64,000 nt of DNA from Actinomycetota bacterium (GTDB taxonomy: Bacteria > Actinomycetota > Acidimicrobiia > IMCC26256 > JAENVU01). The stretch spans positions 17,268 through 81,267 of the forward strand of contig VGBT01000007.1 of assembly GCA_016870395.1 (NCBI GenBank). Direction: 5' to 3'. Numbering within the stretch: position 1 is the first letter of the stretch; the number at the start of each line of letters is the position of its first letter. This document shows, piece by piece, positions 24,923 through 30,819 of the stretch. Both the position numbers and the translations under genes were made by a program. The notes under the pieces were generated by a model. The model ran no database searches and was not told where the DNA came from. It saw nothing but the letters and a program-made list of their open reading frames with translations.

Positions 24923-25154
24923 TTGAACGAGGGTGAGCACGACCGTCGATGCGCGGTTGCTCGCGAGCGCGCGCTCGGCCAACCGGGGCCTCAACGACGC
25001 CGCGCTGCTCGACGCGGCCTTGGAGGCCTTGCTCGCACGCCGCCGCGCCGCGCAGATCGACGCCGCGTACGCCGCGTACGACGCCGCGTCACTCGACGCC
25101 GAAGACGAGTGGAAAGACCCCGCGTCGTTCCGCGAGGCGGGGTCCTCGTCGTGA
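24918..25154 (+). CDS. mazE: MazE-type (RHH) antitoxin, with in-frame TGA at codon 3; intact ORF only from GTG 24933
   Basis: STTVDARLL..AR, DAALLDAAL.ALLAR, IDAAYAAYD, DEW resemble the M. tuberculosis MazE5-type antitoxin (recalled); overlaps the toxin start. Confidence 0.7.
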
Positions 25155-25474
25155 GCCTTCCGGCCCGTGGCGAGGTGTGGTGGTGCCAGCTCCCGCAAAT
25201 CGGTCGCCGCCCCGTTGTCGTGCTCTCACGCGACGCCGCCATCTCGCGGCTGCGCCGGAGTCTCGTGGCACCGTGCACGACCGTGGTGCGCGGCCTCGCC
25301 AGCGAGGTCGTGCTGGAACCGGGCGAGGAGCCGGTCCCGAAGCGCTGCGCCGTGAACCTCGACTCGGTGGAGAGTGTCTCGGTAAAGACGCTGGTCGAAC
25401 GCACGGGCTGGCTGAGCGATGAGCGGATGCGTGAGGTCTGCGCGGCGCTCGCCGTCGCAGTTGCCTGTGACTGA
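25151..25474 (+). CDS. mazF: PemK/MazF family endoribonuclease toxin
   Basis: RGEVWW, GRRPVVVLSRD, VAPCTT..RGLASEV, AVNLDSVESV. Confidence 0.9.
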   Translation: MSLPARGEVWWCQLPQIGRRPVVVLSRDAAISRLRRSLVAPCTTVVRGLASEVVLEPGEEPVPKRCAVNLDSVESVSVKTLVERTGWLSDERMREVCAALAVAVACD

Positions 25475-25539: not shown

Positions 25540-26205
25540 CTACGGGTTGGCGCGCAGCTCGAGCTGTTCGCGGTCGAGGATCCGGTAGCGGCTCCGACCC
25601 GTCGCCTCGATCCAGCACAGGCGCGTGAACATCGCAAGCGCCTTGTTGACGCGCTCGCGCGAGGCGCCGACGAGGCCGGCGAGGTCTTCCTGGGTCATCG
25701 GGAGCGCGAACTCGTCGGCGTCGCCGGCCAGCTCGAGCAGGTGCTTCGCGGTACGGGCCGGCACGTCGAGGAACACGGCGTCGGCAAGTGCCTCGTCGGT
25801 GGCGCGCAGGCGCTGGGCGAGCAGGCGGACGATGAGCCAGAGCGTCTCGGGACGGGCTTGCAGCGCCGCGCGCACGTCGTCGTACGCGACCGCCACCAGC
25901 TCGGAGTCGACCAGGGCGCGGGCCTCGGCCGAGCGGGGCTCGTCGTCGAAGAGGCCGAGCTCGCCGAAGAGGCCGCCCGCCTCCATGATCGCCACCATCG
26001 ACTCGCGCCCGTCGTGAGACCGCGTCGAGACGGCCAGTCGGCCCTCGACCACGACGAAGAGCTCCTGGGACCTGTCCCCTTGAGAGAAGAGGAGCTCGCC
26101 CTTCTCGAGCCTCCGGGCCCGGGCCCGATCGCGCAACCCGTCGAGCACCTCGGAGGGGAGCCCGGCGAACAGCTCGGTCGAGTCGAGGAGGCGGCGCTTC
26201 GGCAC
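25540..26205 (-). CDS. Crp/Fnr family transcriptional regulator (GlxR/Crp-like)
   Basis: cNMP motifs FGEL and PRSA, HTH TQEDLAGLVGASRERVNKAL. Confidence 0.92.
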   Translation of the reverse strand: MPKRRLLDSTELFAGLPSEVLDGLRDRARARRLEKGELLFSQGDRSQELFVVVEGRLAVSTRSHDGRESMVAIMEAGGLFGELGLFDDEPRSAEARALVDSELVAVAYDDVRAALQARPETLWLIVRLLAQRLRATDEALADAVFLDVPARTAKHLLELAGDADEFALPMTQEDLAGLVGASRERVNKALAMFTRLCWIEATGRSRYRILDREQLELRANP

Positions 26206-26324
26206 GCGGCCACACTAACCGGGGTACGTCCGGGTGGTTCGGGTGCGGATTCTCGGTGGTTCCCGCGGTCCGGTAGCATGGTCCGTTCTCTCACCTTCCC
26301 CGGTGAGCCCCTTCGAGGAGTTCC

Positions 26325-27056
26325 ATGTCCTTCGACGTCGGAGACAAGGTCGTCTACCCCCATCACGGCGCGGCGACGATCGAGAAGCGCGAGAAGAAGA
26401 CCGCGTTCGGCAAGCGCCAGGACTACCTCGTCCTACGCCTCGCGTACGGCGATCTCACGCTCATGGTCCCCGCCGACAACGCCGAGGAGATCGGCCTGCG
26501 CGACGTGATCAACGACGAGGAGGTCGAGGAGGTGTTCGCGGTCCTTCGCAAGAAGGAGGCGCGCATGCCGACCAACTGGTCGCGCCGGTTCAAGAACCAC
26601 GTCGAGAAGCTGAAGAGCGGCGACATCTACCAGGTGGCCGAGGTCGTTCGGAACCTCACGATCCGGGAGAGGGACAAGGGCCTCTCGGCGGGGGAAAAGC
26701 GCATGCTCGGCAAGGCGCGCCAGATCCTTGTGTCGGAGCTCACGTTCGCGCTCAACGTGAACGAGGAAGCCGCAGAAGAGACCCTCGACGAGGTGCTCGG
26801 CAAGGGCGACGCGCCGACCGCCGGCGATGGGGCTGCGCAGACACCGGCGGAGAGGACGCCCGCGGAGAAGGCCCCCGGGAAGAAGGCGGCGGCGAAGCAG
26901 GCCCCGGCCAAGAAGGCGGCGGCGAAGCAGGCCCCGGCTAAGAAGGCGGCGGCGAAGCAGGCCCCGGCGAAGAAGGCGGCGGCGAAGCAGGCCCCGGCCA
27001 AGAAGGCGGCGGCGAAGCAGGCCCCGGCGAAGAAGGCGGCGGCGAGCACCAAGTGA
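26325..27056 (+). CDS. carD: CarD family RNA-polymerase-binding regulator with Lys/Ala/Pro-rich C-terminal tail
   Basis: [22 protein letters not shown] (conserved Trp), [16 protein letters not shown]; upstream of ispD/ispF. Confidence 0.95.
26871..27046 (+). repeat. 30-bp tandem repeat (5 full units plus a partial) encoding [10 protein letters not shown]
   Basis: GCCCCGGCNAAGAAGGCGGCGGCGAAGCAG units at 26871, 26901, 26931, 26961, 26991 and partial at 27021. Confidence 0.95.
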
Positions 27057-27168
27057 TGCGACCCTGATCCGGCCGTGATCCGGGGTCTGGCAGACGCCTC
27101 GTTCAAGGCGACCACCTCCCGCGCCGATCCTTAGGGGGTTCGCGGTTCCGAGGGAGGCGACGCCGGCC

Positions 27169-28290
27169 GTGTTCGTCGAAGTCACTCGGCTCTTCACGGT
27201 GGTGCTGCTCACGGCAGCCGGCTTCCTCGTGGGCTCGGACCTGGGCGCCGCCGACCAGACGTTCGCCGGCATCGGCGGGATGCTCGGATGCCTCATCGGC
27301 TACCTGGGCGGCGGGCTGCTGGGTCGTATGCTCGAGCGGGCCGTCGGCGTCGTGGAGCGCCGCGTCGAGCGGGTGCCGCTCCCGCAGGTGCTCGCGGGCA
27401 TGGTGGGTGGCGGCGTCGGTGCGGCGCTCGGGCTCATTTTCGCGGTGCCTGCTGCGGTCTACCTGCGGCCGGAGATCTCGCTGCCCATCGGTGGTCTGGC
27501 GATCTGGTTGATGATGTACCTCGGATTCCGGGTCGCGGCGCGCAAGAGCGAGGAGCTCTTCGCGATGGCGGGGCTTTCGACGCGACCGCTCGTGCGCGCG
27601 CGGCCCTATGACGACACCGAGGGGTTCCTCGTCGACTCGTCCGCGGTCATGGACGGCCAGCTCCGGCCGCTGTCGCGCTCCGGCCTCTTCCGGGACGACC
27701 TGCTCGTGCCGCGCTTCGTGCTCGACGAGCTGCAGGGGATGGCCGACGCTGGCGACGAGCGCAGCCGCCGAGCGAGGCAGGGACTCGAGACGCTCGAGGT
27801 GCTGCGGCGCGAGGCGCCCAATCGCGTCTACGTGGTGGACGACGAGGTGCCCGAGGTGGACGAGGTCGACGCGAAGCTCGTCGCCCTGTGTCGCCGACTG
27901 CAGCTGCGCCTCCTGACCAACGACGTCAACCTGGCCAAGGTGGCCGAGCTCCAGGGTGTCCCCGCGGTGATCCCACGGCGGCTGGCGGCCGACCTGCTCC
28001 CCGGCGTGCTGGCCGGTGAGACGATCGAGGTCGCGCTGACCCGTCCCGGCCGCCATCCGGGCCAGGGGGTCGGGTTCTTCGAGGACGGGTCGATGGTCGT
28101 GGTCAACGGCGGGGCGGATCTCGTCGGCGCGGGTGCGGTCGCCCTCGTGGTGTCGTCGATCGTGCCGACGAGCGCGGGACGGATCGTGTTCGCCCGGATC
28201 AACGACGCCCGGGAGCGCCACGAGCGTCCCTCCACGGACAGAGAGGTGGTCCCGGCGCCTTCAGGTGGGCCCGACTCGGGCCATCATTGA
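27169..28290 (+). CDS. Membrane-anchored PIN/TRAM domain protein (YacL-like)
   Basis: Four N-terminal TM helices, PIN motifs LVDSSAVMDG, VLDELQ, VDAKL, TND; TRAM GQGVGFFEDGSMVVV. Confidence 0.88.
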   Translation: MFVEVTRLFTVVLLTAAGFLVGSDLGAADQTFAGIGGMLGCLIGYLGGGLLGRMLERAVGVVERRVERVPLPQVLAGMVGGGVGAALGLIFAVPAAVYLRPEISLPIGGLAIWLMMYLGFRVAARKSEELFAMAGLSTRPLVRARPYDDTEGFLVDSSAVMDGQLRPLSRSGLFRDDLLVPRFVLDELQGMADAGDERSRRARQGLETLEVLRREAPNRVYVVDDEVPEVDEVDAKLVALCRRLQLRLLTNDVNLAKVAELQGVPAVIPRRLAADLLPGVLAGETIEVALTRPGRHPGQGVGFFEDGSMVVVNGGADLVGAGAVALVVSSIVPTSAGRIVFARINDARERHERPSTDREVVPAPSGGPDSGHH

Positions 28291-28293
28291 ACG

Positions 28294-28932
28294 GTGCAGA
28301 CCTGGGTGATCGTGGTCGCGGCCGGCGCGGGCCGACGCTTCGGGGCGGCCAAGCAGTTCCTCGCTCTCGGGGGAGAGCGGATCGTGGACCGAGCGTTGCG
28401 CGTGGCGCGCCGACATGCCGATGGGGTGGTGGTCGTGCTGCCCCGGGGTTGTGTCTGGGACGGACCGCCGGTGGATGCCGCCACCGAGGGCGGGCCGACG
28501 CGCTCGGCGTCGGTGCGCGCCGGACTGGAACGCGTGCCCGAGTCGGCCGAGGTGATCGTCGTGCACGACGCGGCGCGTCCCCTGGCATCCGACGTGCTCT
28601 ACGACGCGGTCATCGCTGCGGTGGCCGAGGGTGCCGACGGCGCGGTGCCGGCGGTGGCGGTCGCCGACACCGTCAAGCGCGTGCGAGGCTCCCGGATCGT
28701 GGCCACGATCCCGCGCGACGATCTCGTCACGGTGCAGACACCGCAGGCCTTCGCTGCCGAACGGCTGCGTGCCGCGCACGGGACCGAGGCCGAGGGCACC
28801 GACGACGCGGCCCTGGTCGAGGCGGCCGGAGGGGTCGTGGTGGTCGTGCCCGGCGAGCCGGCAAACCTCAAGGTGACCGATCGAGACGACCTCGCGCGGG
28901 CCGAGGCGCTCTTGGCCGAGTTGCAGACATGA
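28294..28932 (+). CDS. ispD: 2-C-methyl-D-erythritol 4-phosphate cytidylyltransferase
   Basis: AAGAGRRFG..KQF, GGPTRSASV, VHDAARP, QTPQAF, TDDA, NLKVT. Confidence 0.95.
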   Translation: MQTWVIVVAAGAGRRFGAAKQFLALGGERIVDRALRVARRHADGVVVVLPRGCVWDGPPVDAATEGGPTRSASVRAGLERVPESAEVIVVHDAARPLASDVLYDAVIAAVAEGADGAVPAVAVADTVKRVRGSRIVATIPRDDLVTVQTPQAFAAERLRAAHGTEAEGTDDAALVEAAGGVVVVVPGEPANLKVTDRDDLARAEALLAELQT

Positions 28933-29442: not shown

Positions 29443-30819
29443 ATGGTCCGCATCCACGACACGTTGCTGGGACGCGACGTCGAGCTCGAGCCTCGCGTCC
29501 CCGGCCGGGTGTCGATCTACGTGTGCGGCCCGACGGTCTACGAGGTTCCCCACGTCGGTCACGGCCGCACGGCACTCGTCTACGACGTGATCCGGCGCTA
29601 CCTCGAGTGGCGTGGGTTCGCCGTCGCGTACGTGAGCAACGTGACCAACGTCGACGACAGGATCATCGCCCGGGCCGCGGCGGAAGGCGCGACCGAGCAG
29701 GAGATCTCCGCGCGCTACGAGGCCACCTACTGGGCCGAGCTGGAGCGCCTCGGCGTACGACGCCCCGACGACGTGCCGCACGCCACCGAGTTCATCGAGC
29801 CGATGGTCGATCTCATCGCGCAGCTCGTCGCGTCGGGGCATGCCTACGTGATCGAGGGCGAGGGTGTGTACTTCGCTGTCGACAGCTACGGGGGCTACGG
29901 CGAGCTCTCCCACCGGCGTCTCGGCGACCTCCTCGACAGCGCGGGATCGCGGGTCGACGTCGACGAGCGCAAGCGGAGCCCGGTCGACTTCGCGCTCTGG
30001 AAGGCGGCGAAGCCGGGTGAGCCCGACTGGGACTCGCCGTGGGGGCGGGGCCGGCCGGGGTGGCACATCGAGTGCTCGGCGATGTCGCTCGAGCTGCTGG
30101 GCGAGGGCTTCGACATCCACGGCGGTGGTGACGACCTGGTCTTCCCGCACCACGAGAACGAGCGGGCGCAGGCGGAGGCGGCCGGCCACGAGTTCGCACG
30201 CCACTGGATCCACTCGGGCATGGTGATGATCGGTGGCGAGAAGATGTCGAAGTCGCTCGGCAACTTCACGACCCTCGGCGAGGCGATCGACGCGCACGGA
30301 GACCGCGCCTTCCGCCTCGCCGTGCTCCAGGTCCACTACCGGTCGCAGATGGAGCTCGGCGACACCGAGCTGCGTGCCGCGGCCGAGGCGGTCGGGCGGC
30401 TCGACGCGCTCGTTCGCCGCACCGTGGCAGCCGGGATCGCGGTGACCGGTGTGCCGGTGGCCGACGACGTGGCCGACCGGTTCCGCGCCGCGATGGACGA
30501 CGACTTCGGGACCCCGGGCGGGGTCGGGGTGGTCTTCGACACGGTCCGGCGCGCGAACAGCGCGATCGACGCGGGCGACGAGCCGGGCGCGGCACGTCTG
30601 GTCGCCACCGTCGTGGAGCTGGCGGGCGCGCTCGGACTCGAGGTCGGCGCAGGGGAGACGGTCGCCGAGCGCGATGCGGAGATCGACGCGATGGTGGCCG
30701 AGCGAGACGCGGCGCGGGCCACCAAGGACTTCGCCGCTGCCGACCGCCTTCGCGACGAGCTCACCGCGCGCGGGATCACGTTGGAGGACACACCGCGCGG
30801 CACCGTCTGGCACCGATGA
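29443..30819 (+). CDS. cysS: Cysteine--tRNA ligase
   Basis: YVCGPTVY, HVGH (HIGH), GRPGWHIECSAM, FPHHENE, KMSKS. Confidence 0.97.
   Translation: MVRIHDTLLGRDVELEPRVPGRVSIYVCGPTVYEVPHVGHGRTALVYDVIRRYLEWRGFAVAYVSNVTNVDDRIIARAAAEGATEQEISARYEATYWAELERLGVRRPDDVPHATEFIEPMVDLIAQLVASGHAYVIEGEGVYFAVDSYGGYGELSHRRLGDLLDSAGSRVDVDERKRSPVDFALWKAAKPGEPDWDSPWGRGRPGWHIECSAMSLELLGEGFDIHGGGDDLVFPHHENERAQAEAAGHEFARHWIHSGMVMIGGEKMSKSLGNFTTLGEAIDAHGDRAFRLAVLQVHYRSQMELGDTELRAAAEAVGRLDALVRRTVAAGIAVTGVPVADDVADRFRAAMDDDFGTPGGVGVVFDTVRRANSAIDAGDEPGAARLVATVVELAGALGLEVGAGETVAERDAEIDAMVAERDAARATKDFAAADRLRDELTARGITLEDTPRGTVWHR

Follow-up and report, generated by a model that had tools for sequence, protein, structure and literature searches.

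The housekeeping CarD of an acidimicrobial bacterium carries a lysine-rich repeat tail of histone-H1-like composition

The housekeeping transcription factor CarD of an Actinomycetota bacterium (GTDB lineage Bacteria; Actinomycetota; Acidimicrobiia; IMCC26256; JAENVU01) carries a lysine-rich repeat tail behind a complete CarD core. Our analyses showed that the tailed CarD is real and conserved, and it is unstudied: a literature search found no paper on a lysine-rich tail of an actinobacterial CarD. The design principle is already established elsewhere, and the function of the tail is what we infer. In Garcia-Moreno et al. 2010 (PMC2919716), actinobacterial CdnL-like proteins of 137–301 aa, with a 198-aa protein of C. 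glutamicum, are given without comment. Tailed genes are annotated merely as "CarD family transcriptional regulator". The gene described here lies in a stretch of 64,000 nucleotides, hereafter the window (assembly GCA_016870395.1, contig VGBT01000007.1, positions 17,268 to 81,267 of the forward strand), to which coordinates refer unless another contig is named.

Results

The core is that of a single CarD/CdnL orthologue

The carD coding sequence in the list of open reading frames runs from 26325 to 27056 on the plus strand (243 aa plus stop), and sequence reading placed a Shine–Dalgarno-like GAGGAG at 26315–26320 (+), 4 nt 5′ of the ATG. Pfam profiles located the RNAP-interacting domain (RID) at residues 3–61 (26331–26507, +; PF02559 CarD_TRCF_RID, E 3e-15, 56 bits against a cut-off of 23) and the C-terminal helical domain of CarD at residues 69–155 (26529–26789, +; PF21095 CarD_C, E 8e-36). 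When all PDB sequences were searched, core residues 1–159 were collinear with residues 1–159 of Streptomyces CarD (8hvr_H, 160 aa, E 2e-56) and with M. tuberculosis CarD (4kbm_B, 162 aa, E 5e-54). Thermus CarD and M. xanthus CdnL were more distant matches, and M. xanthus CarD (2lt1_A) reached an E value of 9e-4 only. The motif PTNWSRR contains Trp85 (codon 26577–26579, +), which aligns to the minor-groove wedge residue W85 of M. tuberculosis CarD and is invariant across 40 tailed homologues. Besides W85, the M. tuberculosis residues R87, R88, K90, R114 and K125 are retained; R25 and R118 are replaced by Lys and R47 by Met. The AlphaFold2 (AF2) model, calculated from a 40-sequence alignment, predicts beta strands at residues 8–49 (pLDDT 76–83) and five helices across residues 64–158; most 10-residue blocks of the core have a pLDDT of 76–90, with a dip to 53–70 across residues 51–90. 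The preliminary description had named a complete mycobacterial-type CarD with the NWSRR Trp motif, which both Pfam domains, the collinear core and the conserved Trp85 bear out. By every sequence criterion tested, the protein hence belongs to the CarD/CdnL family.

The 2.98-Mb genome holds one CarD core; the other five genome matches of the full-length query cover only tail residues 163–241. Downstream of carD follow a gene for a PIN/TRAM membrane protein (27169–28290, +; Pfam PIN_4 and TRAM, also called in the identical metagenome contig L093 described below) and ispD (28294–28932, +; Pfam IspD, E 2e-47), and then ispF and cysS (29443–30819), for which YgbB and CysS genes were called in L093. 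From Pfam matches and gene calls, the order carD, PIN/TRAM gene, ispD, ispF, cysS is the classic actinobacterial setting. Judged from core and setting, the window protein is the single housekeeping CarD/CdnL orthologue and not a paralogue. Upstream, the divergent neighbour encodes a Crp/FNR-family regulator (25540–26205, −; Pfam cNMP_binding and HTH_Crp_2), and beyond it, two genes 5′ of carD, lies a gene for a PemK/MazF-type toxin (25151–25474; L093 1827–2150). A promoter and terminator scan of 26000–27400 yielded nothing informative.

The tail is a polycationic repeat in a used reading frame

The tail in total comprises residues 160–243 (84 aa). It begins with a 24-aa linker (residues 160–183, 26802–26873, +), delimited by sequence and composition, with a net charge of −1, and continues with 60 aa of (G/A)KKAAAKQAP units (residues 184–243, 26874–27053, +), defined by composition and Tandem Repeats Finder. 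These last 60 residues contain 18 Lys, 28 Ala and 6 Pro and no Arg, Asp or Glu, which amounts to a net charge of +18. The array is built from one Gly-type 10-aa unit, four Ala-type 10-aa copies and a truncated AKKAAASTK, in agreement with the about six (A/G)KKAAAKQAP units counted previously. Tandem Repeats Finder reported a period of 30 bp with 7.0 copies and 89% matches at 26837–27045. The full units vary at a single codon, which is GGG (Gly) in the first and one of the synonymous GCC, GCT or GCG (Ala) in the rest. The earlier wording of an acidic/Pro linker was overstated: the acidic residues mostly sit in the final, conserved helix of CarD_C, and the linker proper is close to neutral.

From core to tail, the window sequence runs on without an in-frame stop or a frameshift. 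The GC3 of the tail is 0.95 in the CarD frame (core 0.93), compared with 0.70 and 0.65 in the remaining two, and the frame encoding Lys, Ala and Pro (K/A/P) is kept in 112 homologous tails. From these three features of the sequence we conclude that the tail reading frame is used. In the AF2 model, residues 161–243 have no secondary structure and a pLDDT below 50 except at residue 224; the tail is thus predicted to be intrinsically disordered.

K/A/P-rich stretches of at least 30 aa occur in only four open frames of the genome, which has a GC content of 70.8%. The tail is therefore a specific feature and not compositional drift. The four frames encode CarD, an HU with a PAKKA tail, an all-basic protein of AKRKAAKRAP repeats and a phasin-like protein with a short tail. 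By visual inspection, the HU homologue (C15:48489–48959, −, of the window's genome, G000) has a 65-aa PAKKA/TAKKA tail like that of mycobacterial HupB, and the phasin-like coiled-coil protein (C29:152–568, +) ends in a 33-aa KKSAKKPAKK tail. The all-basic frame (C16:44885–45337, +) consists of 151 residues, nearly all in AKRKAAKRAP-type repeats that use both Lys and Arg, and its product may be a stand-alone histone-H1-like protein.

The tail was previously called histone-H1-like. In composition this holds, as the CarD tail is rich in Lys, Ala and Pro, poor in Arg and predicted to be disordered. The profiles of H1-like and Hc2 families, however, stayed below their cut-offs: on tail residues 173–240, HC2 (Pfam PF07382) scored 32.5 bits against 40, and on the window CarD the NCBIfam profiles hist_H1_lk_Burk and histone_lik_HC2 (NF038053, NF038052) scored 38 against 80 and 17.9 against 135 bits. 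Given these sub-threshold scores, we rejected a common origin of the tail with the Hc2/H1-like families, and its likeness to H1 is compositional only.

Two assemblies differ by two repeat units

The metagenome contig k141_1173723 (L093, ENA, 120,754 bp) matches the window with zero mismatches across 6.7 kb. The sole difference is one 60-bp gap of exactly two 30-bp units (window 26874–27053 compared with L093 3001–3672). The CarD of k141_1173723 accordingly has 223 aa and four units, compared with six in the window, with frame and stop unchanged. This difference reflects either a length polymorphism within the population or a collapse of the repeat by the short-read assembler.

Tails characterize whole families

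In a collection of 5.8 billion proteins, all of the best 120 homologues listed extend C-terminally past the core, most of them with a K/A/P-rich tail of about 19–117 aa. A minority instead have Arg-rich or Gly/Gln/Glu-rich tails arising from frameshifts, or are fused by read-through to the gene that follows. In several public CarD gene models (L014, L020, P0060, P0070, P0077, P0093, P0104, P0105 and P0109) the tails read RRPRR or GQEG, or run into the PIN/TRAM or the IspD gene. RRPRR and GQEG correspond to the +1 and +2 frames of the K/A/P tail, and many of the models stem from long-read metagenome-assembled genomes (MAGs). By their reading frames, such tails look like indel errors in the repeat and not like real variants.

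Within the family of the window, all 24 other sampled genomes align over at least 35 residues into the tail, with several of the alignments crossing a stop codon. Tails of 52–106 aa were found in 10 of the 11 family loci extracted, the eleventh (L007) being unconfirmed in the output. CarD was also extracted from 59 further genomes of the class. Three families of the order of the window (f11, f14, f18) have long tails of 38–104 aa and two (f12, f19) have short ones of 14–21 aa. At least 14 families of the order (f3–f8, f10, f13, f15–f17, f20–f22) lack a K/A/P tail, with a CarD of 159–167 aa; f9 has an extension of 15 aa that is not K/A/P-rich. The closer families of other orders likewise have no K/A/P tail. 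Of the 150 matches listed outside the order in a sample of 400 genomes of the phylum, not one continued past about residue 170 without a stop, and the 20 most suspicious of them were all 158–171 aa long without a basic tail. No tail was seen among the non-Acidimicrobiia actinobacteria examined, and the solved M. tuberculosis and Streptomyces proteins stop where the tail starts, which confirms the earlier statement that mycobacterial CarD has no such tail.

We considered whether tailless relatives read through a stop codon or have the tail as a separate gene, since tblastn and genome-search alignments extended past residue 160 in many genomes. This was rejected: all such cases have a real stop at 159–162 aa, followed by unrelated Arg/Pro-rich non-coding frames, and the alignments past this stop are chance matches of GC-rich non-coding sequence.

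A maximum-likelihood tree built from the 160-residue core showed strong clustering of tail state: five changes were required, and none of 500 shuffles did as well. The families with long tails group together with weak support (SH-aLRT 81), and f12, with its short tail, belongs to a separate supported clade (97). Since this is the gene tree of a short, conserved protein, the number of gains is uncertain. The proposed survey of C-terminal lengths of CarD orthologues in the class thus brought out tail states at the level of the family, the order and other orders. The tail is a clade trait of whole families and not a one-off, and the idea of a singular CarD-tail fusion is refuted by these families together with thousands of metagenomic examples.

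Other orders place the tail at the N terminus

Seven families of other Acidimicrobiia orders (f30, f31, f32, f35, f37, f41, f46) have K/A/P tails in front of the core, with lengths of 48–181 residues that denote the open frame upstream, the true start codons not being fixed (loci L185–L195 and L201 of genomes G165, G074, G089, G056, G052, G129, G099, G111, G066 and G207). These tails are disordered and hypervariable in sequence and length, as at the C terminus of the window CarD, and sit at the opposite end of the protein. CarD proteins with an N-terminal tail usually end in a short acidic peptide, e.g., VEVPEDE. Family f28 has its own K-rich tails at the C terminus (13–53 aa). Polycationic tails have thus been gained repeatedly on housekeeping CarD, at either terminus. 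A hidden N-terminal tail in the window's carD was rejected, with only six in-frame codons 5′ before a stop; a K-rich N-terminal extension upstream of carD was likewise absent from all of the 80 closest species.

Composition is kept while sequence is not

Relatives of the same genus and family share 90–94% identity with the window protein in the core, compared with 38–45% in the tail. The 112 tails have a median length of 66 aa (19–117), 13–41% Lys (median 24%), a median of 2% Arg and a median net charge of +14. They align essentially through shared composition and contain lineage-specific internal repeats, for example, PAKAAA, AKTPA or KKAATKKV units. Lys is preferred over Arg although the window's genome has a GC content of 71%, at which Arg codons should be mutationally favoured. 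The pattern carries the signature of selection that would act on charge and composition rather than on sequence, with frequent slippage. Under such selection, slippage or unequal recombination would keep reshaping the tail, and the near-perfect 30-bp repeat of the window would be its latest, very recent expansion.

Discussion

CarD proteins of M. tuberculosis, Streptomyces and Thermus (PDB 4KBM, 6EDT, 8HVR, 4XLR; CdnL in other phyla) share with the window CarD the two-domain core, the Trp wedge and most basic residues of the C-terminal domain (CTD), as well as the carD-ispD-ispF-cysS neighbourhood and the single copy. They differ in that they end at 160–170 aa, whereas the window CarD has 84 more residues. 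In place of R47 of M. tuberculosis CarD, the window CarD and most CarD proteins of the class, tailed or tailless, have Met. We considered whether the tail compensates for a RID contact weakened by this exchange, an explanation that was rejected given how common Met47 is irrespective of a tail.

The closest architectural parallel is found in myxobacterial CarD, in which a CarD_CdnL_TRCF module is followed by a spacer and a basic, K/A/P-rich, DNA-binding C terminus. The window CarD has the same design, with DNA binding as a property that it would share. As cited in PMC2919716, Garcia-Heras et al. 2009 described the C-terminal domain as HMGA-type in M. xanthus CarD and as histone-H1-like in Anaeromyxobacter dehalogenans CarD, and these domains bind DNA (PMC2919716). 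Myxobacterial CarD, however, is a paralogue with a specialised role: it acts together with CarG, occurs beside an essential CdnL and is found in Cystobacterineae only, with CarG likewise reported only there (PMC2919716). In the window's genome it is the housekeeping orthologue that is tailed; there is one CarD-family core, its best matches are actinobacterial, and its relatedness to M. xanthus CarD is marginal. The window CarD has no AT-hook (RGRP) motif. Since the window protein is the syntenic CarD/CdnL orthologue and only a marginal match to M. xanthus CarD, its tail was acquired independently of myxobacterial CarD, as the preliminary description had suggested.

A second parallel comes from within the actinobacteria. 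Streptomyces DdbA joins H1-like and DksA-like domains (Aldridge et al. 2013, PMC3643593) and thus, like the window CarD, combines a histone-H1-like DNA-binding region with an RNAP-modulating module. In DdbA, this module is DksA-like, the H1-like domain is N-terminal, and the protein is developmentally regulated and not a housekeeping factor, whereas the module of the window protein is CarD. A DksA-like zinc-finger/coiled-coil domain was not found in the window CarD, for which Pfam returned the CarD domains and weak low-complexity matches. HupB/HupS and TopA resemble it in having PAKKA/AKKA-type Lys/Ala/Pro repeats on a folded DNA-transaction protein. The lysine tails of HupB and TopA bind DNA (PMC5676037, PMC5714199) with a demonstrated functional effect, whereas for the CarD tail both would follow by analogy, and the folded partner differs.

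By analogy with these proteins, we think that the tail probably serves as a DNA tether on CarD that affects transcription initiation. In CarD of known structure, the RID attaches to the beta1-lobe and the CTD touches promoter DNA between −14 and −10, where Trp85 is wedged at the upstream fork and keeps the bubble from collapsing (PMC4593161); by homology, the same roles may be assigned to RID, CTD and Trp85 of the window CarD. The tail leaves the last CTD helix, and after the 24-residue spacer the +18 polycation would most plausibly contact duplex DNA. There it would act as a sequence-nonspecific anchor, of the type of histone H1 or the HupB tail, that would keep CarD concentrated on the nucleoid. 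Near the promoter, most likely upstream of −14, it would also give CarD a second hold on DNA, of electrostatic nature. Occupancy and residence time of CarD in initiation complexes would thereby exceed those afforded by the weak contacts of RID and CTD.

A different partner than DNA is conceivable and seems unlikely to us. Polycationic disordered regions bind any polyanion, and the tail is predicted to be of this kind; it might hence associate mainly with RNA such as nascent rRNA or leader transcripts, with polyphosphate or with an acidic protein surface, drive the formation of condensates with RNAP, or serve as a regulatory handle that sets the level or activity of CarD via Lys acetylation or the control of proteolysis. 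The HupS/HupB tails are regulated by acetylation (PMC11229371), and the acidic end peptide of the N-terminally tailed relatives hints at intramolecular charge pairing. However, the closest precedents, i.e., myxobacterial CarD, DdbA, HupB and TopA, use such domains on DNA, CarD itself acts on promoter DNA, and the sequence has no sign of RNA specificity.

We give little credence to the view that an essential gene tolerates a slippage-prone repeat at its 3′ end, so that the tail would be an essentially neutral low-complexity expansion with no role of its own. Such an expansion would fit the hypervariable sequence, with its low identity between close relatives, the span of tail lengths from 14 to 117 aa, the four and six units of two otherwise identical assemblies and the many families without any tail. 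Yet both the tail and its composition persist throughout the sampled genomes of the family and in four or more families, the basic residues are almost all Lys and not Arg despite the high GC content, and polycationic tails were gained anew at the other terminus in other orders. Moreover, two of the only four proteins of the genome with such segments, HU and the all-basic repeat protein, are plausibly DNA-associated. That the long tail is an artefact, from a mis-assembled array or an overlooked earlier stop, can hardly hold: despite the unequal unit numbers and the frameshifted long-read tails of relatives, both assemblies keep frame and stop and differ by an exact multiple of the unit, no in-frame stop separates core and tail, and same-frame tails occur in well over 100 independent assemblies.

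Returning to the DNA tether, many sister families of the order function without a tail, so it is not required for CarD function. RbpA is a partner of CarD at mycobacterial promoters. Neither RbpA (PF13397) nor Lsr2 (PF11774) was detected in any of 41 sampled genomes of the order, although the C. glutamicum control scored for both, and CarD thus works without RbpA here. As both proteins are absent whether CarD is tailed or not, a tail that compensates for the loss of Lsr2 or RbpA was rejected; among residue 47, Lsr2 and RbpA, no correlate of tail presence was found.

We may tentatively speculate further that polycationic tails are a recurrent evolutionary tuning knob on CarD. There would have been at least three gains, C-terminally in the order of the window, C-terminally in f28 and N-terminally in the seven families of other orders. 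A tailed CarD might then reside on the nucleoid, pre-bound to DNA and not recruited only via RNAP, and activate or repress different promoters, with repeat number, as in the four and six units seen here, offering a rapid heritable adjustment of affinity. The effect of CarD depends on basal promoter kinetics (PMC10232725).

For the annotation of this family, it is relevant that tails in long-read MAGs are often frameshifted to spurious Arg-rich or Gly/Gln/Glu-rich sequence or fused to the downstream gene. CarD is an essential and intensively studied initiation factor, and current kinetic models of promoter activation versus repression centre on how weakly and transiently it binds RNAP and DNA. 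Tails of variable length at either end of the protein provide a natural series for probing how residence time and local concentration of CarD relate to promoter output. With them, the design of an RNAP-binding module joined to an H1-like tail extends beyond myxobacterial CarD and Streptomyces DdbA.
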